A stretch of DNA of 64,000 nt from an uncultured Pseudobdellovibrionaceae bacterium (GTDB lineage Bacteria; Bdellovibrionota; FAC87; UBA2466), in the NCBI GenBank assembly GCA_964492125.1, contig CAZBJE010000001.1, positions 4,018 to 68,017 of the forward strand, in the 5' to 3' direction. Of the stretch, positions 4,930 through 55,561 are shown piece by piece (position 1 is the stretch's first letter; the number at the start of each line of letters is the position of its first letter). A program made the translations under genes and the position numbers. The notes below the pieces were generated by a model. That model was not told where the DNA came from. It saw only the letters and a program-made list of their open reading frames with translations, and did not search any database.

Positions 4930-4976
4930 ACGTTTGACTCGTGGGCTGTCGGAATTAGAAAGAAACTAAACCCTGT

Positions 4977-12325: not shown

Positions 12326-12330
12326 ACCAA

Positions 12331-14695: not shown

Positions 14696-14720
14696 ACCGT
14701 CTCCTTGGATATGCGTTTCC

Positions 14721-15965: not shown

Positions 15966-16063
15966 GCGACTACCCCCAAAAAAATAATTCTAAAAACTTT
16001 GTTACTGACGCGTAAAAAAAAGGAAAGCCGGCCGTCATATTTATGACTAGCCTCACCCTGAGC

Positions 16064-27405: not shown

Positions 27406-28692
27406 TTAATTACGTTTCAAGTTGATCACTTCTTCCAACATCTGGTCGGCGCTGGTGATCGATTTTGCGCTCGCTTGGAATCCACGTTGCGCGCGGATCA
27501 TTTCTACGAATTCCGAGGCCAAGTCGATGTTCGAATGCTCCAGGCTGCGGGTTTGGATTGCGCCGCGGCCGTTCGTCTTCGCTTTACCGACTAGTGCTTG
27601 GCCCGATCCCGGGGTTTCCACGAAGGAGTTGGCACCCACCTTCGACAGTTTCTCGGTGGCATCGAAACGTGCCACCGCGATTTGGCCTAAGGTCCGGTTT
27701 TCACCGTTGGAATATACGCCGGTGATGAGACCGTCGGAATCCACTACTGTATCGGCCAACACGCCCGCCGTGTAACCGTCCTGAGTATTGCGGAAGACTT
27801 GGTTTGCTGTTCCGTACATCGTAGTGCCCTTAATGCCGGTTCCTTGAAGATCCATCGGGTCGCCGAAATCGAAGAATAGATTTTGTTCCGGAATCGCACC
27901 GCCGCGGAAGGAGGAATTTACCACCTGCTGCGCGCTGGTAGCCAAACGGCCGCTCTGGTCGAACGTCAATACACCGTTAGCGACTTCACCTGGCTTGCCG
28001 TCTTCTCCATTCACCAGCTGACCACCGTCGGTCATGGCATGCCATTCCCAGGTGTTGTCCGCCGTGCGGTTGAAATACAAGCTAACCGAGTGCGCGTTAC
28101 CGACCGAATCGTACACCTGCATCGCCGAGGCGAAGGTAGCCGTGTCTTCCGGGCGAGTAAGATCCAGGGGACCACCCACGGGTAGACGCGCATCTAAGTT
28201 GGCGTACAGTTCGACTTTTTGCGAGGCCCGGGCGGGGATGGCTTTGAAATCGAGGCGGATATCATCCAGACGACCGCCGATGCGACCGTCGGAGTCGGCT
28301 TTATAGGCCTGCACTTTCGAGCCGCCAATTGTCGTCAGCCAGCCTTCTTTGTCGAAGCGGAAAGATCCGTCCCGAGTGTAAGCGGTACCTTCATCACTGC
28401 GAGTGATGAAGAAGCCGTTGCCGTTCAAGGCCATGTCTGTGCTGTTGTTGGTGCGGGAAACCGAACCTTGAGTAAAGTTGGCGGTGACTCCGGCAACTTT
28501 AGCCCCTTGTCCGATTTGCTCGCCACCGGAAGCGTGAAATACGTCGGCGGCTATGAGGGAGTGGAACTCAGCGCGCGAGCCTTTGAAGCCGGTAGTATTG
28601 GCGTTAACGATGTTATCCGAGATGACGCTTAACATTTCGCCATTGGCTTCAAGGCCGGAAATGGCGGTAGACATAGACGATACAACACCCAT
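27406..28692 (-). CDS. flgE: flagellar hook protein FlgE
   Basis: N-terminal rod/hook consensus (MSTAISGLEANGEMLSVISDNIVNANTTGFKGS) and C-terminal consensus (ITSADQMLEEVINLKR); start at ATG 28692 with GGAGG RBS. Confidence 0.85.
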   Translation of the reverse strand: MGVVSSMSTAISGLEANGEMLSVISDNIVNANTTGFKGSRAEFHSLIAADVFHASGGEQIGQGAKVAGVTANFTQGSVSRTNNSTDMALNGNGFFITRSDEGTAYTRDGSFRFDKEGWLTTIGGSKVQAYKADSDGRIGGRLDDIRLDFKAIPARASQKVELYANLDARLPVGGPLDLTRPEDTATFASAMQVYDSVGNAHSVSLYFNRTADNTWEWHAMTDGGQLVNGEDGKPGEVANGVLTFDQSGRLATSAQQVVNSSFRGGAIPEQNLFFDFGDPMDLQGTGIKGTTMYGTANQVFRNTQDGYTAGVLADTVVDSDGLITGVYSNGENRTLGQIAVARFDATEKLSKVGANSFVETPGSGQALVGKAKTNGRGAIQTRSLEHSNIDLASEFVEMIRAQRGFQASAKSITSADQMLEEVINLKRN

Positions 28693-28817
28693 GGGATCCT
28701 CCGTTAGACAGTTAATGCAAGTGCTTCTATGGAGGGCCACAGGCCAGCACTTGCAGGTTTTGGAATTCCGACGCCGCTAATCCTGCGTCGAAAACTTTTG
28801 AAAATTGTTGGGCGCTA

Positions 28818-29237
28818 TCAAACGATGACGGCGCTATCGATGTTCGTGAAGATGCGCTCTTTTAGGTTAGCGGCGTCCATGGCGGTAATGACGGTGCGCG
28901 ATTTCACATTCGCGATCACGGCGACATTGCCCGCCAGAATCAAAGTTTCCCGGCTGCCTTTTTCGCGCGCCGAATCAATTCCGCCGCTTACCCGACGCTC
29001 TAAGTCTTCGTTCCAATTAATGGCGCGGGACTTGATGCGGGTCTCGGCGTGGTTTGAAAATTTAAGTCCGGAATCAGCCGGCGTTTCCGGCTTGCCGGGG
29101 AGTTCATTGTGCCGGAGCAGGACTTTCTCGAAGTCCGATACTTCGCCCGGCTTGGGCATGGGCTCCGGCGTGCTGCCGATGCGCGGCTCGACCGGGCCTA
29201 TGGGCCCCATCGTCCTGTAGAGGTCCGCGATGCTCAT
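28818..29237 (-). CDS. flagellar operon protein (small protein between flgD and flgE, TIGR02530-like)
   Basis: 139 aa; conserved position between flgD and flgE as in Firmicute/spirochete loci; 4-nt overlap with flgD. Confidence 0.4.
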   Translation of the reverse strand: MSIADLYRTMGPIGPVEPRIGSTPEPMPKPGEVSDFEKVLLRHNELPGKPETPADSGLKFSNHAETRIKSRAINWNEDLERRVSGGIDSAREKGSRETLILAGNVAVIANVKSRTVITAMDAANLKERIFTNIDSAVIV

Positions 29238-30073
29238 GGTTTACCCTCCATCCAACGTTGACCGGGATCGTAGTAACCGCTGCGCGGTGCCCACTCCTGA
29301 TCAGCGGAATTGGAGTTGGCCGCCACCGGCTTGTTCTCCGTCGGTGCGGGTGCGGGCTTAGCCCCCGCCGCTGGCATCTTGCCGTCGGCTGCTTTCTTGT
29401 CGTCTTCCGACCCGATGTTTTGGATCTTGGACAACTCGATCTTTTGCTGGCCGTTGGGTGCGTCGATGAGCAACATCGGGCTGTTGTTCACCATCTCCAC
29501 GCCGATGACTCGACCGGAGAGATGGGCGGACGATTCCTTAGCCTTGCCGTCGGGACCAGTGCCAGCTACACGGAACATGTATTTGCCGGTGGGTAATTTG
29601 GCGCCATCTTTGTCTTTGCCGTCCCAAGTGACCATCTTGCCGCCACCCTTGGGATCGACGTCGATTTCACGAACGAACTTACCGTCTCCGGCGTAAACGG
29701 AGACCTTTAACGGAGTGAATCCATTTTCAGGATTCACATGGATATCCGTTGGCTGATTTTCGATAAGCGAGACCTCGGCCGAACTGGCCTTGACCTGCTT
29801 GCCGATCATCCCCAACGCCTGCATTTTTTGCTCCTCCCCCATCCCACCTTCGAGTTTGTGGATTCCGTCGCCAATTTGCGTCAGCTTTTCGAGCGACGCG
29901 AACTGAGCGAGCTGGGCTCCGAACTCTTTGTGATCCATCGGGTTCAGGGGGTCCTGATTTTGCAGTTGGGCCATCATCAACTTCATGAAGTCGTCTTTGC
30001 CCATGGTTGTTTTATCCGCGACTTCGCCGCGATCCGTTAAATGCGAAGGTAATGCGCCGGTAAGTTCGTTCAT
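29234..30073 (-). CDS. flgD: flagellar hook assembly/capping protein FlgD
   Basis: FlgD N-terminal motif GKDDFMKLMMAQLQNQDPLNPMD; 279 aa. Confidence 0.8.
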   Translation of the reverse strand: MNELTGALPSHLTDRGEVADKTTMGKDDFMKLMMAQLQNQDPLNPMDHKEFGAQLAQFASLEKLTQIGDGIHKLEGGMGEEQKMQALGMIGKQVKASSAEVSLIENQPTDIHVNPENGFTPLKVSVYAGDGKFVREIDVDPKGGGKMVTWDGKDKDGAKLPTGKYMFRVAGTGPDGKAKESSAHLSGRVIGVEMVNNSPMLLIDAPNGQQKIELSKIQNIGSEDDKKAADGKMPAAGAKPAPAPTENKPVAANSNSADQEWAPRSGYYDPGQRWMEGKP

Positions 30074-30086
30074 GAATCAACTTTCC

Positions 30087-31394
30087 TTACACACGGACGT
30101 CCAAGCGTCCCGCGTTCCGGTTCCGTGTTACCGGTGTCTCCGCAAGGAGATCGCGAGACCAAAGCCGCTCTTCCCGGGTCTGACGAGAGAAGCTCCCGCT
30201 TCCCTCCCGTGAGGATTGACCTTGCTGGTGGTTAGTACCTTGACCGAAGTTCATCGAGGCGAACGAGGATTCGCGCGCCGTATGCACTTCAGCGCTGGTC
30301 AGATTCAAGTCCTGCGATTGCAGGGCTTGTTGCAGATCAGCCATCCCACCTTCCAGGGCAGTGCGCGTTGTTTGGCTATCCGAATGGATAGACAATTCAA
30401 CATTCTTGCCACGGGTGGTGAGTTCGATCGTGAGTTTGCCCAGCTCTGGTGGGTCGAGCAGCATCGTCAATTTGCCCCCGCCCTGCTGCACTAGGTCCTC
30501 CAACTTAGGAAGAACTTGTGGAATCAGCTTGGGGGTACTGGCGACATGCCCGACTTCCGGCTTCACTGCGGCCTCAAACGATGTGGACGAATCTTGGATT
30601 CGCTCACCCGTTGTGGACGTGAGAAACGCGGTATCAGGTTGGGTTTTCTTCTCTTCCTTGATCTTCGGTGCTGTCTCGGGCAGTTCCGGAGAAGACTGCA
30701 CTGGCATCGGCACAACCGACTTAGCTGAAGCCTTCTCAGCCACGTTGGTTGGAATCTGCGTTTGCTTTTGTACAGTTACCCGATTATCTCGCTCGACGTT
30801 TGCGGCCATCAGCTTCATCAAGCTGTGCTGGCTAGAATCGGCGTGCGAGTGGATCGGAGCTTCCTCTACCTTCACTTCCTTAACGTCGCCCCAAACGGAA
30901 CTCAGAAGTTGCTGCAGCTGTTTAGGCTGAAGGTCCTCCACTGGCGCTTGTAACAAGGCTTGAACATCCACCCCTGTTAGAACCGCCGCGTTCCCGTCGG
31001 AAAGCGGTTCGGAAATTTGGAAGAAATCGATATTCGGATCCAGAACCACGTTTTCAGGCGTGGCTTTCGGTACCGGTATCGGATTCGGCGTAATCGTATT
31101 CGTAGTCGTATCTTGCGTACCAGGAACTGTCGGAGTCGGTAACGGCAGATTCAACGCACTCAGCGCTTGCTCGGCTACCATCGGCATTGCCGCATCTTGG
31201 CCGAAGTTCTGCGCCCCCAGGTTGAAGCCTGTGGTTGCGTCGGGATCTGTTTGCCACCATTCCGGAGTCTGGCTCGCTGCTTGGAGGCCCAGTAAAGCGC
31301 TCATAAAATCGAAGCCTTCTGTCCCAAGCTGCTGGCCGTCCGGTGACTGGGTCGCTAGTCCCGGACTCTTTTGGATTGATTGTATATTTGCCAT
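30087..31394 (-). CDS. fliK: flagellar hook-length control protein FliK
   Basis: Low-complexity Pro/Thr-rich N-region and conserved FliK C-terminal domain (LTMLLDPPELGKLTIELTTRGKNVELSIHS); strong RBS AAAGGAGG. Confidence 0.65.
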   Translation of the reverse strand: MANIQSIQKSPGLATQSPDGQQLGTEGFDFMSALLGLQAASQTPEWWQTDPDATTGFNLGAQNFGQDAAMPMVAEQALSALNLPLPTPTVPGTQDTTTNTITPNPIPVPKATPENVVLDPNIDFFQISEPLSDGNAAVLTGVDVQALLQAPVEDLQPKQLQQLLSSVWGDVKEVKVEEAPIHSHADSSQHSLMKLMAANVERDNRVTVQKQTQIPTNVAEKASAKSVVPMPVQSSPELPETAPKIKEEKKTQPDTAFLTSTTGERIQDSSTSFEAAVKPEVGHVASTPKLIPQVLPKLEDLVQQGGGKLTMLLDPPELGKLTIELTTRGKNVELSIHSDSQTTRTALEGGMADLQQALQSQDLNLTSAEVHTARESSFASMNFGQGTNHQQGQSSREGSGSFSRQTREERLWSRDLLAETPVTRNRNAGRLDVRV

Positions 31395-31451
31395 TTCATA
31401 TTCACCTCCTTTCTAATTCTGGAAAGCCCCGGTAACCGGCGCTTGTATGAC

Positions 31452-32108
31452 CTAAGGATTTAAAATTGTAGTGGCCGGCGGCTTTTCATTTGCCGACGAC
31501 AAAAATCGTTTTGTGATGTCCCGTGCTTTAGCCGGATCCATTTTCGCCAAAATGTCCGCTGCGTGCTGCTGGCGCATACCAGACAAAACCCGTCCAGCGA
31601 GTTCGGCTTCCAAGTCATCTAAAATTCGAGCCGCTTTCTTAGCTTCCATTTTCTCGTAAACGCTGCGGAACGCGTTCACCTTCTCATCGCGGGCCGATTC
31701 AAGCGCCTTCACTTCACCTCGGAGCTTGGCCAATGTGCCTTCGTACTTTCCGAGCTGTTGTTCTAGGAATGCCTGCTTTTCATTGAGCTCACGTTCCCGG
31801 TTTTTCAGCGCGGCTTCGCGTTCGTCGACCTTCTTCTCTCGGTCCTTCAAAACACCGTGGAGCTTCTGCAGATCTTGCTCAGAAGGCCCCGTGTGGGCCG
31901 TAGCCTCGGGAGTGGAGGCCAGTTCGCGCGCTTTGGAGAGTTCCTCCAAGCGCTTGTGGTAGCGCTCCCGCAGTTCTGCATGAGAGGGCTCGCGCGGAGG
32001 TGCACCGGCGGCCGCTGGCGGTGGCGCCGACTCATGGCCATTGGCGTACGCAGGTTGGGCGACTAGCAGAGCGCCAATGAAACTCGCAATTGTGAATACT
32101 CTCTTCAT
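31452..32108 (-). CDS. MotE/YlxF-like flagellar protein (MgtE-N-like helical domain)
   Basis: Signal peptide, coiled-coil, C-terminal motif YEKMEAKKAARILDDLE...ADILAKMDPAKARDI; position between fliJ and fliK as ylxF in Bacillus. Confidence 0.45.
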   Translation of the reverse strand: MKRVFTIASFIGALLVAQPAYANGHESAPPPAAAGAPPREPSHAELRERYHKRLEELSKARELASTPEATAHTGPSEQDLQKLHGVLKDREKKVDEREAALKNRERELNEKQAFLEQQLGKYEGTLAKLRGEVKALESARDEKVNAFRSVYEKMEAKKAARILDDLEAELAGRVLSGMRQQHAADILAKMDPAKARDITKRFLSSANEKPPATTILNP

Positions 32109-32110
32109 GG

Positions 32111-32563
32111 CTAGTCTCGATCCCCTTGTGACGCAATTCCGCGAGCCCGACGCAACTGCACAAAATCGTCGATGGCTTTTTGTTCTTTGCGCGTACGGTC
32201 CAATCTAAACTCCGCGATCCGTTTTTCTTTCAGCGACTCCAGCGAACGCCGGCGTTGCGAAAGACGAATCAAAGCTTTCTGTTTCTTATCCAGCGCTTCG
32301 TACTCTTCCACCCGGAGCGCCGCAATACGGCGATTTTCCTCCATGGTCGGCACGATGGAATGCCGGTGAGCATCCCCTTCCAAGGTATTCACCGCCCGGG
32401 TACTCACCTCAATGGCGGTGCGGATCTTGGTCTCCAGTTTGGCGGTGTACTTATCCAAGAAGGAGATACGCTGCAGAATCCCGGCAATCTGAGTCTTGGT
32501 TTGGTTCTCTCGCAAAAGTGCGAACCGCAACGCTCGCTCCAGGCGAAAGGCGAACTTGCGCAT
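32111..32563 (-). CDS. fliJ: flagellar export chaperone FliJ
   Basis: 150-aa coiled-coil protein, directly downstream of fliI with 1-nt overlap. Confidence 0.55.
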   Translation of the reverse strand: MRKFAFRLERALRFALLRENQTKTQIAGILQRISFLDKYTAKLETKIRTAIEVSTRAVNTLEGDAHRHSIVPTMEENRRIAALRVEEYEALDKKQKALIRLSQRRRSLESLKEKRIAEFRLDRTRKEQKAIDDFVQLRRARGIASQGDRD

Positions 32564-33894
32564 TAACCATTACCCATCAGGTCGAGAACCTGGGAACGGG
32601 TGGATGCGAAATCTCCGCGTTCATCCCGATCCTGCTTCAAAAATTTGCGGATTTTAGGCGCCATTTCGATGCAGTGGTCGATCTCGGGATCGCTACCACG
32701 GCTGTACATCTGGTACTGAATGGCGTCCTCGTTCTCCTGGTAACGCGCGAGCAATTCTTTGAGCTCACGTGCGGCTTTGCGGTGCTCCGGAGTCACCACC
32801 GAGTCCATCACCCGGCTGATGCTTTGCAAAATATCAATCGCCGGGTACTGCCCGCGATTCGCCAAGCGCCGCGACAAAACAATATGGCCGTCCAAAATAG
32901 CGCGGGCGGCATCGGCGACGGGATCTTCCATGTCGTCGCCTTCGACCAGCACGCTGTATAGACCCGTGATGCTGCCGGCTTTGCCCCAGTTCCCGGCGCG
33001 TTCCACGAGCCGAGCGAGGGAAGTAAACACAGAAGCGGGGTACCCCTTAGACGTCGGCGCTTCGCCGGCCGCGCTTCCGATTTCTCTTTGCGCCATAGCA
33101 AAGCGAGTGAGCGAATCCATGAGCAACAAAACATTTTTGCCATCGCGGCGGAAGTACTCCGCGACAGCGGTGGCCACATAGGCGCCTCGCACGCGGCGCA
33201 CAGGCGATGTATCGGCGGTTTCGGCAATCACCACCATTTTCTTACGCGCCTCGGGTCCCAACTCATGCTCCAAGAAATCGCGTAGCTCGCGACCGCGCTC
33301 ACCAATCAACGCGAGCACCACTACGTCGGCAGAGGTATGGCGGGCCAGCATTCCTAGCAAAACGCTCTTGCCCACACCCGAACCGGCAAAAATCCCCAAA
33401 CGCTGCCCCTGACCACAGGTGAGGCACGCGTTCACTGCGCGTACTCCCAGATCTAGGGGCCTTAAAATCCGTTCCCGTTCCATGGGATTCAAAGGCAACC
33501 CGTAGAGTGGGATTCGCTCGTGCAAACCTTCGATTTTGCCACCTTCGTAAGACCGAAGCGTCGAATCAACCACCGCCCCCAACAAACCGGGGCCCGCCGG
33601 AATGTAACCCGTCTCCTCCGACAGCACGACCGAGTCGCCCAGCTGCACGCCCGTCAAATCATCGAGCGGCATGGCAATATGGCCCTCGGGGTGCAAACCC
33701 ACGATCTCCACCGCCACAGGGCCACTGAGGCATTGAATTAGGCAAAGCGAACCCACACGAGCTCCGGGCATATTGATGCGCACGGAATCCCGACTCACCC
33801 GTTTCACTTCGCCATAAAACTGCACGAAGGTCTCGGAGCGAACGGCTTCGCTATAGCGTTCAAGGGGTGTTTGCATGAGCTCCCAAAAATTCAT
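32563..33894 (-). CDS. fliI: flagellum-specific ATP synthase FliI
   Basis: Walker A GSGVGKSVLLGM, F1/T3SS ATPase core; 443 aa. Confidence 0.9.
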   Translation of the reverse strand: MNFWELMQTPLERYSEAVRSETFVQFYGEVKRVSRDSVRINMPGARVGSLCLIQCLSGPVAVEIVGLHPEGHIAMPLDDLTGVQLGDSVVLSEETGYIPAGPGLLGAVVDSTLRSYEGGKIEGLHERIPLYGLPLNPMERERILRPLDLGVRAVNACLTCGQGQRLGIFAGSGVGKSVLLGMLARHTSADVVVLALIGERGRELRDFLEHELGPEARKKMVVIAETADTSPVRRVRGAYVATAVAEYFRRDGKNVLLLMDSLTRFAMAQREIGSAAGEAPTSKGYPASVFTSLARLVERAGNWGKAGSITGLYSVLVEGDDMEDPVADAARAILDGHIVLSRRLANRGQYPAIDILQSISRVMDSVVTPEHRKAARELKELLARYQENEDAIQYQMYSRGSDPEIDHCIEMAPKIRKFLKQDRDERGDFASTRSQVLDLMGNG

Positions 33895-34588
33895 TAATCT
33901 TGTCGGTCAGCTTTTCCACTTCCGCTTGTGGCGCAAAGAGGATTCCGCCGCCGTCGAGTTCCACCCGCATTTGCTGGTCGGAAAGCGAGCGATCTTCGGC
34001 CCATTCCCAGTGGGGGGCGGAACCGGTGGCACTGGCGCGCACGCGCTCCATCACCGACGGTGCCAACACCACCCGAATCTTGGCCTGACGGGACAAGTCT
34101 CCAATCGACTCTTCCAACCAGGACTTCAAACCTTTGAGCCGTTCCGGATCGAGCGGGATCAGAAACCGGCGGCCCAAATGCGCAATGGCCTCGCACCACA
34201 ATCTTTCGTGCGCGTGCAAGAGCGCTTCTTTCTCTCGAATAAGCGTGGCCGCAACCTGTTCTAGATCCGCAAAAAGCTTTTGGGCTTGGGTGCGGGCTTC
34301 TGCCAGCCCCTGCTCCATGCCCTGCTGCCGCGCGCCTTCGAATATCGCTACCCGCTGCGGAGCCGACTCCGAATCAATCATTTGCTTGGCACGTGCCTCC
34401 ACGCGCTCTTCAAATTCCTTTTTCACCTCGGCATCTCTTTCCAGGGTCTCCCAGAATGCAGAAGGCATGGTGAAACGCACCGGCTTCGTGACGGGCATGG
34501 GGATGCCAATCGATCCGGAGGAGAGTGGAGCGCCGGAAACTAACGGCGACAACTCAGGGAATAACTTCTTGGTCTTCGCTGAATCCAA
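33860..34588 (-). CDS. fliH: flagellar assembly protein FliH
   Basis: Position between fliG and fliI; charged coiled-coil N-half, FliH/NtpE-like C-half; TTG start in track, true start may be an internal ATG. Confidence 0.5.
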   Translation of the reverse strand: MDSAKTKKLFPELSPLVSGAPLSSGSIGIPMPVTKPVRFTMPSAFWETLERDAEVKKEFEERVEARAKQMIDSESAPQRVAIFEGARQQGMEQGLAEARTQAQKLFADLEQVAATLIREKEALLHAHERLWCEAIAHLGRRFLIPLDPERLKGLKSWLEESIGDLSRQAKIRVVLAPSVMERVRASATGSAPHWEWAEDRSLSDQQMRVELDGGGILFAPQAEVEKLTDKINEFLGAHANTP

Positions 34589-35630
34589 TGACTATCTTCC
34601 CTTCATCTTGGAGCCGTTTCATAACTGTTGCGATTTGGCGCTGCGCGCTCTCTACGTCGGACACCTTTTGAGGACCGAGAGCCCCTAAATCCTCGCGCAA
34701 CATTTCGGCAGCGCGCTGGGACATCGCGGAGAAAATCTTTTCCCGCACTTCTTCGGGGGCACTCTTTAGCGCCAACAGCAGACGATCTTGGGGAACTTCG
34801 CGCAGAATGAGCTGTACGCCGCGGTCGTCGATTTTGCCGATATCCGCAAAAGTGAGCATGTGTTGACGAATTTCCTCGGCCAAGATGGGGTCCTTGTCTT
34901 CCAACCGGGTCATCAACGAGTTCATCGTTTTTTTGTCCAGGTTGTTGACGAGTTCTGCCACCGCCAGGACGCCGCCAAATTTATTGGTGCGCGCCTTTCC
35001 GGAGCTAGCCAATTCCTTCTTGAGCATGTCGTCGAGCTCGTCCACCTTTTCTGGCGCCACGTATTCAAGACTCGCCATGCGCAGCACAACTTCGGTGCGA
35101 ATAGAGTCGGGGAAGTTGCGCAGGGTCGAAATCTGCTTGGTAAGGTCCATGTGGGCCATCACCAATGCGATGGTCTGAGGGTGCTCCTCCACTAAGAACT
35201 CGGCGATTACTTTGGGCTCGACGGACTCGAGTACCGTAAGATGCTTTTGATCGACCAGATTGACTGCGCTGAGCGATCCGAAAATCGCTTTGGCCCGTTC
35301 TTCGCCCAAGCCTTCTTTGATCACATTGGGTTCCGAAAGTTTTTCGTCGAAAATAATATCTTCCCGCTCAGAAATCTTGAAAAGGTACTCACGCAACACG
35401 CTATTGATCAAGGCGATGGGGGCCTTGCGCATTTCGCCCATCACTTTGAGCAAGCGGCGGACGTCCGTGTCTTTAAGGTCCTTCATCATGCCGAACGACT
35501 TCTCTTTGCCGAGAACGTTCATCAGGATCGCAGTTTTTTCCAACCCACTAAGCGTGGCGGCCTTACTTTTGGTCGTCGGGGGCTTGGGTTGTTTCACTGC
35601 CATGGCAGCGACGGCGGCATTCGATTTCAT
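34554..35630 (-). CDS. fliG: flagellar motor switch protein FliG
   Basis: FliG middle and C-terminal domains (EHPQTIALVMAHMD..., charged torque helix region); 358 aa. Confidence 0.8.
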   Translation of the reverse strand: MKSNAAVAAMAVKQPKPPTTKSKAATLSGLEKTAILMNVLGKEKSFGMMKDLKDTDVRRLLKVMGEMRKAPIALINSVLREYLFKISEREDIIFDEKLSEPNVIKEGLGEERAKAIFGSLSAVNLVDQKHLTVLESVEPKVIAEFLVEEHPQTIALVMAHMDLTKQISTLRNFPDSIRTEVVLRMASLEYVAPEKVDELDDMLKKELASSGKARTNKFGGVLAVAELVNNLDKKTMNSLMTRLEDKDPILAEEIRQHMLTFADIGKIDDRGVQLILREVPQDRLLLALKSAPEEVREKIFSAMSQRAAEMLREDLGALGPQKVSDVESAQRQIATVMKRLQDEGKIVIGFSEDQEVIP

Positions 35631-35640
35631 TCGTTCCTCA

Positions 35641-37365
35641 TTAGGGGGTAGCTAGCGCGCGCAAGAGAGGCCTGTCCGAGACCCCGCCTTCGCGGCGATC
35701 ATCGGGCTCTTCCAACCACTCTTCGATAACCGCTAAACCCTTCTTGGGTGTGGCACCTAGGCGGTCCATGATGCGACGGCGAAGTTCCATTTCCTCACGC
35801 TTTTCCAGCGGCTCGGCTTCTTCAGGAAGCACTCCGTCGGCGAGCGCTAAACCCGGGGCGCTGCCGGAGGCGGCTGCGAGGCCGTTGGCACCGGCGGTTT
35901 CAGCTTGGATTTCCGCTACTGTGCGCGGGAATTGCTCCAGGCTTGCCTCCAACGAGCTGCGGCGTGAACGACGGCGCAAGAAGAGCAGCATTCCCATCGA
36001 GAGCGGGATCATCGCGGCCAAGAAAATCAAGCCCACGCGCATCGCAATGGGTTGGCTTTGGAACCAGCCGACCGTTGGCGCGGGGACTTCTTCGGGGAGA
36101 AATTCTGTTGAGCGAAATGGCAAGCAGGACACCGTAATTGAATCGCGGCGCTGTTCGTCGAAGCCCACCGAATTGGCCACCAACTGCTGCAAGCGTTTCA
36201 GCTCTTCATCCGAGCGCGGAGAGAACTGCTCGGTGCCATTCACGGTGGTGTAGTAGCCATCCACAATTACGGCAACGGTCAGGCGCTTGAGATTCCCCGA
36301 TGGCTTATCAGTAACTTGGATTTTGCGTGGGACGTTGTAGCTGGTGTTCTTAACGCTCTTTTCGGAGCTCGTGCTGGCCATGGGAACGGCGGGACTCACT
36401 GCCTCCGCGCCAGGTAGGTTCGAGCGGCTGCCCGGAATACCAATCGGATTGGGCTTACTACCCGTGGTGGTTTCCTCGTTGCTGACGGAATTACGTACCG
36501 CCGACTTCTCTGGATCAAAACTCTCTTCGGTGGTGTTTACGCGGGAGGGATCGATTTCGGCAGCAACTTTGGCGCGTACTTTTCCCATCCCGACCACGGG
36601 GCTTAGAATTTCCTCTACGCGTTTCTCGAACTCGACTTCCATGTTGTGCTGATTTTCCAGCAGTGTGGTAGACAGGCCCGAGGCTGCACCCTCGTCTTCG
36701 GGGCGGTGGAGAAAGTTGCCTTGAGTATCGACGATGGAGACATTGTTAACCTTAAGGCCTTCCACAGCACTAGCCACTAGATGGGCAATACCGTTGATTT
36801 CGCCCTTAGAGGGACGTTGCCCGCGACGCAGCTCCAGAATAACCGATGATTTGGGCGGTTCCTCTTCTTCCAAGAAGGTTTTCTTGGGGGGAATGCTGAT
36901 ATGGACCCGCGCCCGTTTTACTGACGCCAACTGCTGAATGGAGCGAGTCAGTTCGCCTTGCACCGCGCGCACATACTGAATGCGCTGGACATAGCTCGAC
37001 ATCCCTAAAGTTGCCGAATCGAACTTTTCAAAACCCACCACGCTGCTACCCGGCAGGCCGACCTTAGCCAACTCCATCCGAGCCCGCGCGACTTCACTCG
37101 CGGGTACGCTGACAGTAGTGTTGTCGGGTGACATTAAGTGATTGATCTTCTGCTCACCCAACGCCTTCGCCACGCCGCGCGCCTCTTCGGCCTGCAGGTC
37201 TGTATAGAGAACTTGCATGGGATCTTGGCTACCAATAATTTTGGCAGCCACCACTCCCAGCACTGCCACGCCTGCTATCACGGCAACGCCGAGACGCATT
37301 GTGGCAGACTGTTTTCCCCACCACAGCTGGACCGTGGCGATAGCTTTCGACAGCGTTTCATTCAT
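35641..37365 (-). CDS. fliF: flagellar M-ring protein FliF
   Basis: 574 aa; N-terminal TM, YscJ/FliF secretin-like periplasmic domains, second TM near C-terminus (AMRVGLIFLAAMIPLSMGMLLFL). Confidence 0.85.
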   Translation of the reverse strand: MNETLSKAIATVQLWWGKQSATMRLGVAVIAGVAVLGVVAAKIIGSQDPMQVLYTDLQAEEARGVAKALGEQKINHLMSPDNTTVSVPASEVARARMELAKVGLPGSSVVGFEKFDSATLGMSSYVQRIQYVRAVQGELTRSIQQLASVKRARVHISIPPKKTFLEEEEPPKSSVILELRRGQRPSKGEINGIAHLVASAVEGLKVNNVSIVDTQGNFLHRPEDEGAASGLSTTLLENQHNMEVEFEKRVEEILSPVVGMGKVRAKVAAEIDPSRVNTTEESFDPEKSAVRNSVSNEETTTGSKPNPIGIPGSRSNLPGAEAVSPAVPMASTSSEKSVKNTSYNVPRKIQVTDKPSGNLKRLTVAVIVDGYYTTVNGTEQFSPRSDEELKRLQQLVANSVGFDEQRRDSITVSCLPFRSTEFLPEEVPAPTVGWFQSQPIAMRVGLIFLAAMIPLSMGMLLFLRRRSRRSSLEASLEQFPRTVAEIQAETAGANGLAAASGSAPGLALADGVLPEEAEPLEKREEMELRRRIMDRLGATPKKGLAVIEEWLEEPDDRREGGVSDRPLLRALATP

Positions 37366-37380
37366 AAATTAGCTCTAGAA

Positions 37381-37683
37381 TCAGACCTGCATGCGCAGAA
37401 TTTCGTTGTAGGCTTCAATCGCTTTGGTACGGAACTGCACCATCAGCTTAAAGGCGGTCTCCGCTTTTTCGGTTGCCACCATGGACTCGTGGAGGTTTTC
37501 GGTCTTACCCAAAGCCAAATCAGTCGCTTTGTTGTCAGACTCGTTCAAAAGTTGATTTACCTCGCCCATCGATTTTTCGAGATAGGACAGGAAGGAAGAG
37601 CCTTCGCCGCGTTCTTCGAAAACCTTTGGAGAGGAAATCTCCATTGGTTGCATCATGGGCATTCTATCGAATTTTATTTCCAT
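37381..37683 (-). CDS. fliE: flagellar hook-basal body protein FliE
   Basis: 100 aa with FliE C-terminal consensus (ATEKAETAFKLMVQFRTKAIEAYNEILRMQV). Confidence 0.75.
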   Translation of the reverse strand: MEIKFDRMPMMQPMEISSPKVFEERGEGSSFLSYLEKSMGEVNQLLNESDNKATDLALGKTENLHESMVATEKAETAFKLMVQFRTKAIEAYNEILRMQV

Positions 37684-37686
37684 CTA

Positions 37687-38118
37687 TTATCTCCGCCCGA
37701 TATCCAGGGCTTTGTTCATCATGTTGCGAGTGGTGTTGATCACCGTCACATTCGCTTCAAAAGTCCGGCTGGCGGTGATGAGGTTAACCATCTCTTCCAT
37801 GGTGTTGATGTTGGGATAGGCCACATAACCTTCCGTATTCGCATCCGGGTGGTCGGGCTGATAAACCATCTTGGGAGGGTTTGGGTCCGAGATCACGTCC
37901 GCGACGCCCACTTTGTGCAAGGGGGCATTCATTTGCGAAGCCAGTTCGTCTGCGAAAGGCCGGGCCTCAAACACGGCGTCCTTCCGACGGTACGGACCAC
38001 CCTCGGGAGTGCGAGTAGTTTGGGCGTTGGCCAAGTTGCTCGAAGTAACGTTCATGCGCAAGCGTTCGGCAGAGAGTGCGGATGCGCTTACGTCTAAGGA
38101 GTCGAAGAAATCACTCAT
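37687..38118 (-). CDS. flgC: flagellar basal-body rod protein FlgC
   Basis: N-terminal rod motif ALSAERLRMNVTSSNLANAQTTR and C-terminal consensus. Confidence 0.85.
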   Translation of the reverse strand: MSDFFDSLDVSASALSAERLRMNVTSSNLANAQTTRTPEGGPYRRKDAVFEARPFADELASQMNAPLHKVGVADVISDPNPPKMVYQPDHPDANTEGYVAYPNINTMEEMVNLITASRTFEANVTVINTTRNMMNKALDIGRR

Positions 38119-38498
38119 CGATCACTGCCTCCTGAAATAGCGTATTTGAGCAAGGCAAACTTCTTAGAAATCATTTGGGTGGCGGCGCTGTACTGCACGT
38201 CGTTCTTGGTCATGCGCGCCATTTCTTTATCCATGTCGACCGTATTGAGATCCTGGCCCAATTCAGTGTCGGCATCCTGGCGAATCTGAGGGCGCACCGA
38301 TTCGATTTCCACTCCGGCCAATCCTTGTTCCTCGGAAGCTACGGCGCGTTGAAGTTCGGATTCGAAATTGACCTCGCGAGATTTATAGAAAGGCGTCTCC
38401 GCATTGGCGATGTTGTCCGCAATCACGTTGTGACGCGTGAGATACATATCCATCGACTTTTCGAGGGCTCGGGTTGAAGTATCGAAGAGTGAGCTCAT
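38115..38498 (-). CDS. flgB: flagellar basal-body rod protein FlgB
   Basis: Rod motif YLTRHNVIADNIANAETPFYK; 4-nt overlap with flgC. Confidence 0.85.
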   Translation of the reverse strand: MSSLFDTSTRALEKSMDMYLTRHNVIADNIANAETPFYKSREVNFESELQRAVASEEQGLAGVEIESVRPQIRQDADTELGQDLNTVDMDKEMARMTKNDVQYSAATQMISKKFALLKYAISGGSDR

Positions 38499-38542
38499 TT
38501 TTTCCCTAAAGTTATTCGAGGAAAGTGCCGATACATTTAATG

Positions 38543-38558
38543 CTGCAATCTAAGTACC
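38543..38558 (-). promoter_or_regulatory. sigma54 (RpoN) -24/-12 promoter match upstream of flgB
   Basis: Minus-strand sequence TTGGTAC-ttaga-TTGCA matches TGGCAC-N5-TTGCW with correct 10-nt GG-to-GC spacing; predicted leader about 33 nt before the flgB ATG; adjacent gene encodes a sigma54 activator. Confidence 0.5.
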
Positions 38559-38622
38559 AATGTTTCAGGCACGACGCACACGCGTCGCCCGGCAAAAAAC
38601 TCCACCAACCGGCAGAATTTTC

Positions 38623-39564
38623 CTACGCGGAGAACTCTTTCAACTTGTTGCGTAACGTCCGAACACTAATACCCAACTTCTTTGCTGCCTCAGTGCGGTT
38701 GCCGTCAGTAGTAGTGAGCGTTTGCAGAATATGCTTCTGCTCCACACCGGCCAGATCCACAGGGGCCGCCGTCGCGATCTCCGGCGTGTGCAAGGGACGC
38801 AAATCAAAGTGTTCGACACCCAGCTGGGGTCCATCACAAAGCAACAAAGCCCGTTCGACCGCATTTTGCAGTTCGCGTACATTGCCCGGCCATCCATAGC
38901 GTCGCAGTTTTTCCATGGCAGCTGGGGAAATACGCTTGGGTTCTAGCCCGCTTTCCTGGCAAGAGCGGTGCATGATATCGGTAGCCAACGCTTCCACGGC
39001 TTCGCTCCGGCCGCCCAGCGGAGCACAATCAATTCGAATCACATTCAGTCGATAGAATAAATCTGCGCGGAAAGATTCGCGTCGAATCAATTCAATTGGT
39101 TCCACGTTAGTGGTGGCAATAATGCGGGTGCGGATGGGTACCGGGTGGCTCCCGCCCAAGCGATCGATCTCGCCCTCTTGCAAGACCCGAAGCAATTTGG
39201 CCTGCAGGTGCACAGGCATTTCGCTCACTTCATCCAAAAGTAAAGTCCCGCCGCTCGCGCGCTCAAAGCGTCCAATGCGTTGGGCGACAGCCCCAGTGAA
39301 AGCACCGCGCTCATACCCAAACAACTCGGCTTCCATCAAACCTTCCGGAATCGCCGCGCAGTTAATCGAAACAAACTGACCGCGAGCACGTTCGCCCCGC
39401 TCGTGGATGTAGCGGGCGATAAGCTCTTTACCGGTGCCGCTCGGCCCTACGATCAAAACCGGCATGGTGGACTGGGCAGCGCGGGAGGCCAGATCCAGCG
39501 TCTGTTCCATCAATGCATCGGCCACAACCATGGATCGGTTTCGAAATTCGATGGTTTTGATCAT
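38623..39564 (-). CDS. sigma54-dependent transcriptional activator lacking an N-terminal regulatory domain (AAA+ core plus Fis-type HTH)
   Basis: 313 aa beginning directly with the AAA+ sigma54-interaction domain (Walker A GPSGTGKE, GAFTGA loop ELFGYERGAFTGA, Walker B LLLDEV, GWPGNVREL); C-terminal HTH (EAAKKLGISVRTLRNKLKEF); no receiver/GAF/PAS domain. Confidence 0.8.
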   Translation of the reverse strand: MIKTIEFRNRSMVVADALMEQTLDLASRAAQSTMPVLIVGPSGTGKELIARYIHERGERARGQFVSINCAAIPEGLMEAELFGYERGAFTGAVAQRIGRFERASGGTLLLDEVSEMPVHLQAKLLRVLQEGEIDRLGGSHPVPIRTRIIATTNVEPIELIRRESFRADLFYRLNVIRIDCAPLGGRSEAVEALATDIMHRSCQESGLEPKRISPAAMEKLRRYGWPGNVRELQNAVERALLLCDGPQLGVEHFDLRPLHTPEIATAAPVDLAGVEQKHILQTLTTTDGNRTEAAKKLGISVRTLRNKLKEFSA

Positions 39565-39588
39565 GGGCTTCCTTTGACTGAAATCGGA

Positions 39589-41907
39589 TCAGGGGGCTAA
39601 CAGCTTCATTTCACTCTGGGCCAAAGGGCTCCAGAAACTATCTTTCAACTGCACAGCCTTGCTCCATTCCTGGCGGGCGGCTTCGGGCTTTTTCTCGGCC
39701 AGCCAGCACTTGCCTAGGCGAAAGTGCGAACCTGCCGCTTGCGGGGCATCGGGCGTCATCTTGAATGCGTTCTCAAAAAGTGGGATGGCCTGCTTGCACT
39801 GGCGGCTTTCATACAGCGCGCGCGCGGCCAAATGATAGTAGGGCCCCAGATCCTTGGGCTCAGAGAATGTGGCGCGTGCGGTTTGAAGCAACTCCCCGCC
39901 CATATTCCAAACCTTCATGGTGTCGACGATCTCACTCATCTCAGCCACTAATTTTTTCTGGGTGGCGGCATCGGCGCCGGTCAGCCGACGCTTGACCAAG
40001 TTAAAGGCACGCGGGCCGTCACCGAGCGCTTTAGCCAGTTCGATGCGCTCGAGCAAGATGGAGCTATTCCATTTCGGGTCATCCAACGTCTGAAGGAGTC
40101 CCTGCGCCGACTTAGCATCCCCACTCAAACGCAAGCCTTGTGCAGTGGCCAAGCGATACAGAGTGACTTGATCGCTAGGCAATGCACCCACTTGCGAAGC
40201 AGGTTCACGGGCATCGCGTGAGCCTTTGGCTTGCAAAAGCGTTTCCGCAAACCAACCTAGAATCGCGTATTCCGGCGCCACGACCGAGTCTAAAATGCTG
40301 CGCGATTGCCCCACTTTGAGCACGAGGGGACTATCGGCTCCGCCCAAGTAAAGTGCGCGCAAAGTGTGGTAGCCGATCTTCAAACGTACCGCTTTAGGGG
40401 GACCTTGTGGCGACCAAAGGGGAGAAGCTTGCCAACGATGCAAAAGTTCCAAGCCGGCGTCCAGCTCGCCTTTGTCGACGAGCGCGGCGTAGCTATCTCC
40501 GGCGATCTTGGCGTAAAATTCGACTGCCCAAGTAGCCGAGGGCGTCCCTTTGAGCCAATCGGAATAGACGGACTCGATGGCTTTCTCGATCGCTGGCGAA
40601 TCCAACTCGGCGAGCTTTCCAGCTTCCAAAAGCCCAATCAACTTGTGCCGAATGAAGTCGCCCGTTTTACCTTTATCAATCACGAATCGGGTTTTACCGC
40701 GCAGGTTGTTGAGGTAGTTCACTGCTTCGATTTTGCCTAAATCCAAGAGCGTTAAGCCCTTTTCGACGTAGATGCGGGACCGGAGATCTTCGTTGCCGAT
40801 GGAGTCGACTTCCGCATCCACTAGGCGAATGCGGCGATCGAGTTCACCGCCCGGCTTCAACTGAGGGTCGGTGAGCAAGCCATGGGCATAGGCGAAGCGA
40901 CCCATATCGGTTTTGGGAAACTTGTCGTATACCGCCAAATAGCGGCCCGTGACTTTGCCTGGCTTGTCGCCCATGCGGGCCGCCAGATCCGCTTGGCGTT
41001 TAGCAACGTAAGGCATGCAGTCAGACTGACTGCGCTCCGTGGTCGTGTAGCGGTCGAAGAAGTAACCTGCTTCTTTCCACTTTCCAGCGCGATAAAGCAA
41101 TTCACCTAAATTCGCCAGAGTCGGTTGGTAAAAACGCTCGATAAACGGGCTTTCGTCGGCCACCAGTTTCTCATAGCCCTCTACGACACCACTTTTGCCT
41201 TGCTGCCATTTCAAGTCGACTTTGCGAATGAGCGCCGCCGCTCGTAGGCGGAAGTTTACACACGTGGCCATCACGCGATCGTACGCCGCCTCGGCGACAT
41301 CCCATTTGCGCAGCAGAAACTGAGTTTCCGCCACCCCCATCAGGAAGGTGCAATACAACGGATCTTGGGTAAACGTGTTCACTCCGGTCTCGTAGATCGC
41401 CAGACTTCGTTGGTAGTTGCCCGTGCGAAGCCAATGGGCTCCGGCGGTGGCTGTGAGCACGGGGGCGAAATCGGATTTGGGGTACAGCAACAACGCGCCC
41501 CTTAGCTTGCGCTCAGCCCGACGGCCATCTTCGTCTTCCACACCCGTGGTGTCTTGGTCGAAAAGCGATTGGACTTCTAAGAAAGTTACCGCCTCCCGAA
41601 GGGGGCTGGATTCAAAGGTGGTGCGGAACGTGGTGATACCGTGTTCCAACTCAGACCATTTTCGATCGCGGAACAGGCGGATCAGCTGGTTGTACTCACG
41701 CTTACCGGCAACGTCGTTCGCTACTTCAAAAAAACTTTCTTTCCCAATCCCCAACGCAATAGGGCGCTCGCAGACCGGGTGGTCCAGATCAAAGTCTTCC
41801 CAGCTGCTAAATTCCCGCGCCGCGTAAGCGACTTTTGGAACCAGCAAAAGCAAGGGGAGTAAAATGCGGGCAGAGGTAGGGTAAGGCACCAACGTATTAC
41901 ATAGCAA
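39589..41907 (-). CDS. large secreted TPR-repeat protein (772 aa)
   Basis: Signal peptide; multiple TPR-like helical repeats (e.g. ...AWLRTGNYQRSLAIYE..., ...YRAGKWKEAGYFFD...); 24-bp gap to the sigma54 activator gene. Confidence 0.5.
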   Translation of the reverse strand: MLCNTLVPYPTSARILLPLLLLVPKVAYAAREFSSWEDFDLDHPVCERPIALGIGKESFFEVANDVAGKREYNQLIRLFRDRKWSELEHGITTFRTTFESSPLREAVTFLEVQSLFDQDTTGVEDEDGRRAERKLRGALLLYPKSDFAPVLTATAGAHWLRTGNYQRSLAIYETGVNTFTQDPLYCTFLMGVAETQFLLRKWDVAEAAYDRVMATCVNFRLRAAALIRKVDLKWQQGKSGVVEGYEKLVADESPFIERFYQPTLANLGELLYRAGKWKEAGYFFDRYTTTERSQSDCMPYVAKRQADLAARMGDKPGKVTGRYLAVYDKFPKTDMGRFAYAHGLLTDPQLKPGGELDRRIRLVDAEVDSIGNEDLRSRIYVEKGLTLLDLGKIEAVNYLNNLRGKTRFVIDKGKTGDFIRHKLIGLLEAGKLAELDSPAIEKAIESVYSDWLKGTPSATWAVEFYAKIAGDSYAALVDKGELDAGLELLHRWQASPLWSPQGPPKAVRLKIGYHTLRALYLGGADSPLVLKVGQSRSILDSVVAPEYAILGWFAETLLQAKGSRDAREPASQVGALPSDQVTLYRLATAQGLRLSGDAKSAQGLLQTLDDPKWNSSILLERIELAKALGDGPRAFNLVKRRLTGADAATQKKLVAEMSEIVDTMKVWNMGGELLQTARATFSEPKDLGPYYHLAARALYESRQCKQAIPLFENAFKMTPDAPQAAGSHFRLGKCWLAEKKPEAARQEWSKAVQLKDSFWSPLAQSEMKLLAP

Positions 41908-42120
41908 AGGGCGTGCCGAACGGGTCCTGCCCGGGCCCTGCTAATCGAAGAGCTTCTTTCGTTTCTTTCCTGTCAGGGCGTCAAGGTTTTGTCGACAGAA
42001 ACGCCGCGCCGCGATAAAAACACTCCCGGCGCATTGAACTTTTGCTGCGGTGCTTCTGGAATTTCCTAACAGTTCTACCGATAAGCACAGGGAATGGGAC
42101 CCTTTTATCATCAAGTGACT

Positions 42121-42615
42121 ATGCAAACTGCCCTGCGTTGGATTCTGTCGTCGGTATTTGCGATCTGCCTGGGCGCTTGCGCCATCGTGGGCGGCGGTAC
42201 GGATTTGGAGCACGCCTCTGGTTATTCCGTCACGCCGCCAGCAGACTGGAAAACCCAAGGACGTGGCGACGGCGACCGCGCCTATAAACTGCCCTCCGGT
42301 AATGTGGTGAGCTTAGTAAGCAGTTGCAACCGCAACCCCGACGCGCCATTGGATGTGCTGACCCGCCATCTTTTAATGGGCACCCGCAACGTAACCGTTT
42401 CGGCCAGGGAGAAGAAAACGTTCGGCGCCAACGAAGGGCTCTATTCCAAGGTGGTCACCCGGTTAGAGGGTAAGCCCTTCCATTTGGATTTGTTTGTTTT
42501 GGCCAAAGAGAAATGCGTTTTCGATTTTTCTTTGATTAGTCCTAAGCCCATTGGCGAAACCGATTCCAAGGCATTTAAGGAATTCATCGAAAGCTTCCAC
42601 TATGGAAAAAACTAA
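42121..42615 (+). CDS. hypothetical lipoprotein upstream of mlaE
   Basis: Lipobox ICLGAC after hydrophobic signal; start chosen at internal ATG 42121. Confidence 0.4.
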   Translation: MQTALRWILSSVFAICLGACAIVGGGTDLEHASGYSVTPPADWKTQGRGDGDRAYKLPSGNVVSLVSSCNRNPDAPLDVLTRHLLMGTRNVTVSAREKKTFGANEGLYSKVVTRLEGKPFHLDLFVLAKEKCVFDFSLISPKPIGETDSKAFKEFIESFHYGKN

Positions 42616-46415: not shown

Positions 46416-46429
46416 GTCAATTAATTGAC
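46416..46429. promoter_or_regulatory. perfect 14-bp palindrome GTCAATTAATTGAC in divergent promoter region
   Basis: Read directly, in AT-rich region between the sigma54 regulator gene and thiL; a second short palindrome AATTTAAATT lies at about 46346-46355. Confidence 0.3.
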
Positions 46430-55087: not shown

Positions 55088-55561
55088 CTAAACGTATTTT
55101 ACGGACAGGACCTCGTACTCTACTTGGCCCTTCGGGACTCGAACCGTTACGGTATCGCCGGCTTCTTTATTTAGCAACTGGCGCGCGACCGGAGAGTCGA
55201 TGGACAAGCGACCTTCGTGGACATTGGATTCATCCGAACCGACGATCTGAAAAACTTTTTTCTCGTCGCTATCCACGTCGAGCAATTCGACTGTAGCGCC
55301 AAACACAATTTTGGTGGTGTTCAACTCGAGGTAGTTAATTACCTGAGCGCGCGCCAACTTATCGTCGATTTCCTTAATGCGGCCTTCGATGAACGACTGC
55401 TTTTCCTTCGCGGCATCGTACTCCGCGTTTTCGGACAAGTCGCCGTGGGCGCGTGCGGTTGCAATGGCTTCAATCACCCGAGGCCGTTCGACCGTCTTGA
55501 GGTGCTTGATTTCGTCTTCTAACTTTTTCTTACCCTGCGGGGTCATCGGAACCGAACTCAT
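55088..55561 (-). CDS. greA: transcription elongation factor GreA
   Basis: N-terminal coiled-coil with acidic tip (GDLSENAEYDAAKE) and C-terminal FKBP-like domain; 157 aa. Confidence 0.9.
   Translation of the reverse strand: MSSVPMTPQGKKKLEDEIKHLKTVERPRVIEAIATARAHGDLSENAEYDAAKEKQSFIEGRIKEIDDKLARAQVINYLELNTTKIVFGATVELLDVDSDEKKVFQIVGSDESNVHEGRLSIDSPVARQLLNKEAGDTVTVRVPKGQVEYEVLSVKYV

Follow-up and report, generated by a model that had tools for sequence, protein, structure and literature searches.

A conserved sigma-54 promoter architecture around a receiver-less FlrC/FlbD-like activator at the flgB locus of Bdellovibrio-like bacteria, with a candidate antisense sigma-28 promoter

Introduction

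Sigma-54 flagellar hierarchies are thought to need a sensor, either a kinase acting with a receiver protein (FlrBC, FleSR, FlgSR) or a partner protein (FliX, FleN), which ties expression of the rod and hook genes to assembly of the MS-ring and export gate. The bacterial enhancer-binding proteins (bEBPs) FlrC, FleR and FlgR activate sigma-54 rod and hook promoters, their own genes being transcribed from a sigma-54 promoter under a master regulator, and in polar flagellates this checkpoint of kinase and receiver separates the MS-ring and export genes from the rod and hook genes (Burnham et al. 2020). FlbD of Caulobacter crescentus is a flagellar sigma-54 activator which functions independently of phosphorylation (PMC3096577) and on which FliX acts, and FleN (FlhG) acts on the AAA+ domain of FleQ (PMC10723142). 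Sensor-less bEBPs have also been recognised, including PspF, HrpR/HrpS and LafK (type Ic) and FleT, the last without both end domains (Francke et al. 2011). FleT of Rhodobacter sphaeroides consists of the AAA+ domain only and is encoded by the first gene of the sigma-54 operon fleT-fliEFGHIJ (Francke et al. 2011). The present work concerns the flgB locus in a 64,000-nucleotide stretch of DNA, hereafter called the window, from an uncultured Pseudobdellovibrionaceae bacterium (GenBank assembly GCA_964492125.1, contig CAZBJE010000001.1, positions 4,018 to 68,017 of the forward strand), in which a gene for a bEBP without a receiver domain, hereafter called the activator, lies directly upstream of flgB.

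An earlier note on this DNA, made from the sequence alone, had proposed a sigma-54 promoter in front of flgB next to an activator without a sensory or receiver domain. Sensor-less bEBPs and sigma-54 control of flgB are already known, the latter being ordinary and predicted, for example, in Geobacter. What is new is the conserved promoter architecture of the whole locus, foremost a backward sigma-28 (FliA-type) promoter motif, antisense at flgB, which is the novel part. This element, the sigma-54 promoter of the activator's own operon (P1) and a pair of palindromes upstream of the flgB promoter (UAS2) are additional to the claims of the earlier note.

Results

Loci compared

The window was compared with 12 related loci (L081-L086 and L088-L093), giving 13 loci in all. 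The activators of the 12 related loci have 54-75 % amino acid sequence identity with that of the window. The gene order, an exported protein with tetratricopeptide repeats (TPR protein), activator, flgB, flgC, fliE, fliF and fliG, is kept in all 12 of them, with a TPR protein of 770-826 amino acids and an activator of 307-324 amino acids, and a divergent operon (unknown-MlaE-ABC) is found upstream in most. A metagenome scan with the TPR-protein alignment returned three loci, one of which was a duplicate of L081. The coordinates of the features in the window are collected in Table 1.

Table 1 Features of the flgB locus and its surroundings, numbered from the first base of the window
Feature	Position	Strand	Basis or location
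Receiver-less sigma-54 activator (bEBP), FlrC/FlbD-like, 313 aa: AAA+ core, lid, Fis-type helix-turn-helix (HTH)	38623..39564	-	Pfam, NCBIfam and PDB matches
P2, predicted sigma-54 promoter TGGTACTTAGATTGCA of the flgB operon	38544..38559	-	Motif and conservation
UAS2, two 13-bp palindromes, GGAAAATTCTGCC (38623-38611) and GGAGTTTTTTGCC (38603-38591), consensus GGAA-N5-TTCC	38591..38623	-	Conservation
Antisense FliA-type promoter motif TAAAG-N16-CCGATA	38507..38533	+	Between P2 and the flgB ATG
P1, predicted sigma-54 promoter CGGCACGCCCTTTGCT of the TPR-activator operon	41903..41918	-	Top -24/-12 score and conservation
UAS1, CGACAA-AACC-TTGACG-CCC-TGACAG	41970..41994	-	Approximately 60 nt upstream of the P1 -24 element
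Exported TPR protein gene, 766 aa, probable GTG start 41889, signal peptide MPYPTSARILLPLLLLVPKVAYA	39589..41889	-	Translation
Operon flgB flgC fliE fliF fliG fliH fliI fliJ, 218-aa gene, fliK, flgD, 139-aa gene, flgE	27406..38498	-	Pfam, NCBIfam
Second bEBP, 453 aa: weak REC, AAA+, HTH	44952-46313	-	5.4 kb upstream, same strand as activator

Domain content and relatives of the activator

The minus strand reads, in order, a TGA (39591-39589) ending an open reading frame (ORF) of 772 codons, a gap of 24 nt which includes an AAGGAAG ribosome site, the activator ATG at 39564, an ORF of 313 codons ending with TAG at 38625-38623, a spacer of 124 nt and the flgB ATG at 38498. The Pfam domains of the activator are Sigma54_activat (PF00158, residues 14-178, 2.5e-65), AAA_lid_14 (186-255) and HTH_8 (274-311), and no REC (Response_reg), FleQ, GAF, PAS or V4R domain was found in it by the Pfam scan, which bears out the earlier description of a protein without a sensory or receiver domain. 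The GAFTGA loop (ERGAFTGA), Walker A (GPSGTGKE) and Walker B (LLLDEV) motifs are intact and invariant across 36 aligned sequences. The PF00158 core with these intact motifs identifies the protein as a bEBP, and an AAA+ domain beginning at residue 14, a retained HTH_8 and the absence of an N-terminal signal domain place it with the sensor-less bEBPs (type Ic).

The earlier note had reserved the possibility that the true start codon lies further upstream and adds a regulatory domain in frame. However, an in-frame TGA, the stop codon of the preceding TPR gene, is located 27 nt 5' of the activator ATG, and the N-termini of 35 homologues of 306-336 amino acids coincide within approximately 3 residues when aligned with the window sequence (36 sequences). 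A hidden N-terminal extension is therefore ruled out. The activator keeps a conserved N-terminal stub of 13 residues with a nearly invariant Arg10.

The best NCBIfam match was FlbD (NF050807), over profile positions 115-439 of 454, and its 362.4 bits are below the cut-off of 750, so the protein is not assigned to the FlbD equivalog. Profiles of REC-bearing activators (FlbD, AtoC, NtrC, FlgR, ZraR) match the activator only from profile position 115-148 or thereabouts, the FlgR and NtrC-type profiles only from approximately 134-140, and no curated NCBIfam cut-off was reached among them. PspF is not indicated either (TIGR02974, 259.9 bits vs 443.55; NF008622, 216.6 vs 529), and there is no pspA-like neighbour. 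The closest solved chains are three AAA+ entries of Vibrio cholerae FlrC (PDB 4qhs, E 4e-73, residues 8-255), followed by ZraR, NtrC-family proteins, FleQ and PspF. The AAA+ domain is thus most similar to that of FlrC, and the gene adjoins the sigma-54 promoter of flgB...flgE, as would be expected of an FlrC-like protein; a response regulator of the FlrC/FleR/FlgR type is not indicated, as the activator has no REC and no kinase gene is present at any of the 13 loci.

A database search with the activator gave 8000 relatives, and the family comprises at least 120 clusters. The best 120 homologue clusters of the 8000 relatives have 55-100 % identity, and all have 278-338 amino acids and the same three domains. 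The homologues are named "FlrC" or generic sigma-54 regulator by their sources and come from Bdellovibrionales or "Deltaproteobacteria" metagenome-assembled genomes. No description of this activator family was found in literature searches. Judged by its domains and relatives, the activator is an FlrC/FlbD-like bEBP that has lost its receiver and not a mis-annotated longer gene.

Promoter and candidate enhancer of flgB

The minus strand at P2 reads cat TGGTAC TTAGA TTGCA gca (38559-38544), the 3' end being 45 nt before the flgB ATG. Apart from P2, neither strand of the window has a match to TGGYAC-N5-TTGCW; 0.07 were expected, 7 of 100 shuffles gave one, and the count taken alone is no more than suggestive. 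The strong evidence is conservation: each of the 13 loci has GG-N8-TTGCA in the spacer that separates the activator gene from flgB, a spacer which otherwise averages 43 % column identity, and the chance of such a pattern in one 150-nt spacer is approximately 0.02. As a matter of conserved sequence, P2 is thus a real -24/-12 promoter, as the earlier note had proposed. Transcription is predicted to start near 38533, which would give a leader of approximately 35 nt, and a scan of 38300-42300 revealed neither a sigma-70-type promoter nor an intrinsic terminator.

The first base of the first UAS2 palindrome is also the last of the activator stop codon, and the two palindromes are 20 bp apart centre to centre, centred at approximately -84 and -64 relative to the predicted P2 start. 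Both copies and a spacing of 20-21 bp are kept in 12 of the 13 loci, whereas L085 has one copy. UAS2 is likely to be the flgB enhancer, its layout being typical of bEBP sites, and we infer that the adjacent activator binds it. The conserved -24/-12 promoter together with these candidate upstream sites is what a bEBP target would contain. A semi-conserved block, (C/T)GTGC(C/G)nGAA, is also seen in most loci approximately 8-12 nt before the GG of P2 (38560-38580, minus strand); the window copy folds into a CGACGC-GTGT-GCGTCG hairpin that the other loci do not keep.

Antisense FliA-type element between P2 and flgB

All loci share TATCGG-N14-AACTT(T/G)AG between P2 and the flgB ATG, the reverse complement of which, CT(A/C)AAGTT-N14-CCGATA, contains T(A/C)AAG-N16-CCGATA. 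The window copy has a TAAAG -35 and a CCGATA -10 separated by 16 nt, as in a FliA promoter, and is the sole strict match in the 64 kb (0.08 expected). It agrees, including the N16 spacing, with the attack-phase FliA consensus mapped in B. bacteriovorus, TTAAG-N16-CCGATA (Karunker et al. 2013, PMC3627812). Every one of the 13 loci carries the element, and its internal spacer does not vary. With a relaxed pattern applied to 113 kb of related loci it was recovered in 12 loci, with five other matches, mostly degenerate; the thirteenth locus, L089, carries the variant CCGATG. The element faces in the direction opposite to flgB, so that transcription from it would cross P2 and UAS2 and enter the activator gene at its 3' end; in most loci the predicted antisense start lies inside the P2 -12 region.

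Between the FliA-type element and the -12 element there are 9 to 57 nt, and between it and the flgB ATG 6 to 51 nt; variable flanking distances around a fixed spacer are the behaviour of an independent bipartite element. It could instead be supposed that TATCGG-N14-AACTTNAG is not a promoter and that a feature of the flgB transcript or start region (a sequence preference in the initiation region, a translation signal or the binding site of a protein) mirrors the FliA consensus by chance, and this would suit the observations that in 8 of 11 measured loci AACTT(T/G)AG stops 6-7 nt short of the ATG, overlapping purine-rich, Shine-Dalgarno-like bases, and that TATCGG starts at the predicted P2 +1 in most loci. 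We nevertheless regard it as somewhat unlikely, as varying distances combined with a fixed spacer are what marks a bipartite promoter, the bases that never change (T.AAG and CGA.A) are those contacted at the core by sigma-28, N16 is the spacing mapped in Bdellovibrio, and strict matches are otherwise absent from the window and rare in the 113 kb of related loci.

A protein-coding role of an antisense transcript was rejected, as no conserved antisense ORF is located downstream of the element, and no part of the window reached the gathering score of any Rfam family. Literature searches found no report of an antisense FliA promoter at flgB. A further sigma-28 -10-like sequence, CCGATAAG, was seen at 42078-42083 (plus strand), upstream of the divergent 173-aa gene that starts at 42094 (unknown-MlaE-ABC operon). 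It is kept as TTATCGG in L081 and L082 and is variant in L084; the -35 match is poor (CTGGAATT).

The operon of the TPR protein and the activator

P1 (CGGCACG-N4-TTGCT) is the best-scoring -24/-12 match of the whole window and is located directly ahead of the TPR gene. CGGCA[CT][GA]-N4-TTGC[TA] is found at this position in 13 of 13 loci, surrounded by divergent intergenic DNA. Upstream of it, YGnCAA-N4-TTGACG-N4-YGACAG occurs at the same distance from P1 in all 13 loci, and UAS1 is the only match to TTGACG-N3-5-YGACA in the window. UAS1 is unlike the GGAA-N5-TTCC sites of UAS2, and both are conserved. Its core, GnCAA-N4-TTGAC, resembles the FleQ box of P. aeruginosa, GTCAAT-NN-ATTGAC (PMC10723142), a likeness that serves as a lead and not as a test. 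UAS1 is accordingly put forward as a candidate enhancer for a higher-tier activator. Its reading as a sigma-70 promoter, with TTGACG as -35, was rejected, as no -10 hexamer is conserved 16-18 nt away and the promoter scan found none. The presence of P1 and of a separate candidate enhancer ahead of the TPR and activator genes indicates that the activator gene is itself sigma-54-dependent.

In several loci 1-4 nt are shared by the TPR and activator genes, from which co-transcription is concluded. The repeats of the TPR protein are confined to its C-terminus (Pfam), its N-terminal hydrophobic stretch is conserved among relatives, and the protein has Cys and Trp residues at invariant positions. 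Pfam, NCBIfam and the PDB gave no specific relative, PflA and PflB included, and to assign it to the flagellar motor or sheath would be a guess. The probable TPR start (GTG 41889 in the window; GTG, ATG or TTG in relatives) is only 12-15 nt past the TTGCT of P1, at approximately +2 to +6 of the predicted start, and was seen at the same place in L081, L082, L084-L086, L088 and L090-L092. The TPR mRNA would consequently have little or no leader, an uncommon condition both for transcripts from sigma-54 promoters and for genes that begin with GTG.

Target operon and other features of the window

flgB was identified by TIGR01396 (104.5 bits vs a cut-off of 59); the match to fliH is weak, and the product of the 139-aa gene is "Flagellar_put". 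The largest gaps inside the operon from flgB to flgE are 57 and 77 nt, so the rod, MS-ring, rotor, export ATPase and hook genes apparently form one operon. Scans of the window ORFs found no rpoN, fliA, flhF/flhG, fleQ-like or flagellin gene in the 64 kb.

The second bEBP has no specific family match, and none that is flagellar, and is approximately 41 % identical to the activator. A perfect palindrome, GTCAATTAATTGAC (46416-46429), is located upstream of it, and its TTGACA followed by TATTCT 17 nt later is sigma-70-like. A similar palindrome, GTCAAACGTTTGAC (4925-4938), precedes an ABC-transporter operon. In both of these perfect GTCAA-N4-TTGAC palindromes (46416 and 4925) TTGACA is followed by plausible -10 boxes, so that each is probably an ordinary sigma-70 promoter.

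A 66-codon ORF (MIRLTKFDGKSIMLNAEWIQSV..., 11318-11518, plus strand) was observed directly upstream of motA/motB (11537-13128), and no sigma-54 or strict sigma-28 motif was seen ahead of it. Its product may resemble the small flagellar protein FlbD/SwrD. The remaining neighbours include ordinary housekeeping genes, ftsQ-ftsA-ftsZ, greA, recG and carB (regions 13502-16789, 55088-55561 and 52999-55080, all on the minus strand).

Discussion

The features of the locus are best accommodated, in our opinion with fair though far from complete confidence, by a sigma-54 circuit of two tiers, which would control the early and middle flagellar genes in this Bdellovibrio-like lineage. In the first step a higher-tier activator would bind UAS1 and fire P1, and the exported TPR protein and the 313-aa activator would be transcribed. 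The activator, having no receiver, would in the second step need no phosphorylation and would be active once made, its activity thus being set by its amount. The receiver domains of NtrC1 and DctD act negatively, and the sensor-less activator is probably constitutively active. The elements upstream of P1 and P2 differ, which suggests that control is probably exerted through the amount of activator, in a cascade. The layout is that expected when a master activator controls a receiver-less activator and this in turn the structural operon, with autoregulation as a further possibility.

In the third step the activator, bound to the GGAA-N5-TTCC pair, would open the sigma-54 closed complex at P2, from which flgBC-fliEFGHIJ-fliK-flgD-flgE would be transcribed as a single unit. 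With the MS-ring, export, rod and hook genes in one operon, the kinase checkpoint of Vibrio, Pseudomonas and Campylobacter would find no classes to keep apart, in keeping with the loss of the receiver; the fusion of the operon classes and the absence of the receiver may well go together.

A fourth step is offered tentatively, as a possibility that falls short of a probable conclusion. Sigma-28 polymerase at the backward promoter would occlude the sigma-54 complex or collide with it and would produce RNA antisense to the 3' end of the activator gene, shutting off the early operon once FliA is active. The FliA promoter in the flgB leader would in this way provide late-to-early feedback, displacing and antisense-silencing the first stage in place of the checkpoint of kinase and receiver.

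Several points weigh against this interpretation. The -35 part of the antisense element overlaps the ribosome-binding region of flgB, and its conservation may partly have another cause. The presence of sigma-54 is deduced from two bEBP genes and two conserved promoters, with no rpoN in the window; B. bacteriovorus HD100 has rpoN (Bd0843). The assignment of binding proteins to UAS1 and UAS2 could be swapped or shared, and a partner regulator, for example of the FlhG/FleN or FliX type, may be encoded elsewhere. Finally, the REC of P. aeruginosa FleR stabilises the active oligomer (PMC10696123), so that loss of REC is no guarantee of constitutive activity.

The earlier note had suggested constitutive control or control by a partner protein. 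The former agrees with the sensor-less architecture. The latter, in which a separate protein would inhibit or activate the activator through its AAA+ domain (as in PspA-PspF, HrpV-HrpS, FleN(FlhG)-FleQ or FliX-FlbD), would couple flgB transcription to the assembly state or to flagellar number. The two closest relatives that have been characterised are under partial or complete control in trans (FlbD through FliX instead of phosphorylation, FleQ through FleN), and the conserved 13-residue stub with Arg10 could be read in the same direction. Nevertheless, the small negative-regulator gene sought beside the bEBP was not found: no small PspA-, HrpV- or FliX-like gene is located next to the activator in the window or the 12 related loci, no small conserved gene adjoins the activator in the 13 loci, and among the window ORFs scanned there were no matches to FliX, PspA or FlhG. 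The only linked gene encodes an exported protein, unable to reach a cytoplasmic ATPase; the TPR protein was rejected as a cytoplasmic PspA-like partner on account of its conserved signal peptide and the lack of a specific solved relative. As P1, with its different upstream element, already supplies a control point, a switch of the PspF/PspA type is disfavoured, and we consider a partner unlikely.

An exchange of the sites appears improbable. In this alternative the activator would bind UAS1 and stimulate its own operon by positive feedback, flgB being transcribed by read-through, and a different bEBP, for example that encoded at 44952-46313, would serve P2 via GGAA-N5-TTCC or form mixed rings with the activator in the style of FleQ/FleT or HrpR/HrpS. 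In its favour, no terminator separates flgB from the activator gene, the gene of the second bEBP, whose REC match is weak, is located on the same strand, and hetero-oligomeric bEBP pairs are documented for flagella. Against it, that second protein matches no flagellar family specifically and is only approximately 41 % identical to the activator, and in all loci UAS2 is situated where the activator gene itself ends, as is usual for the sites of a local regulator.

If the two-tier circuit is correct, the large and unstudied family of receiver-less FlrC-like activators suggests a simpler wiring in Bdellovibrio-like bacteria, in which timing is set by the amount of the activator and not by its modification. 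In B. bacteriovorus, FliA promoters mark approximately two thirds of the attack-phase promoters. The backward FliA promoter, if true, would tie the attack-phase switch to the shut-off of the flagellar assembly genes in a concrete way that can be tested. P1, P2, UAS1, UAS2 and the antisense promoter are defined motifs and as such targets for reporter and mutational work.

Among the described systems, the likeness to FlrC/FleR/FlgR lies in the AAA+ domain, for which FlrC is the closest solved sequence, and in homologues labelled FlrC. Unlike these proteins, the activator is without a receiver, and its gene is adjoined by an exported TPR gene instead of a kinase gene (FlrB/FleS/FlgS). The MS-ring, rotor and export genes are here in the activator's target operon, whereas in Vibrio and Pseudomonas they belong to one class earlier. 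FlbD of C. crescentus is the best NCBIfam match, spanning the AAA+ domain and the HTH; however, FlbD keeps a degenerate REC, the match starts only at profile position 115, and no FliX-like gene is present in the window. PspF and HrpR/HrpS share with the activator an AAA+ core and HTH without an N-terminal domain, but the activator scores below the PspF cut-offs, serves a different regulon and has no linked gene of the PspA or HrpV type.

The statement in the earlier note that flagellar bEBPs normally carry REC or FleQ domains was too strong, FleT and LafK being without a signal domain (Francke et al. 2011). FleT of Rhodobacter (Cereibacter) sphaeroides is a sensor-less flagellar bEBP, encoded in a sigma-54 operon with fliEFGHIJ that is activated by the higher-tier FleQ. 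It has no DNA-binding domain and functions solely in hetero-oligomers with FleQ, whereas the activator described here has a complete HTH_8 and candidate sites of its own. The proposed cascade has parallels in that from FlrA via FlrBC to class III genes in Vibrio and in that from FleQ to fleT-fliEFGHIJ in R. sphaeroides. FleT is thus the nearest analogue in logic, and FlrC and FlbD, both of which have a REC, are the nearest in sequence.

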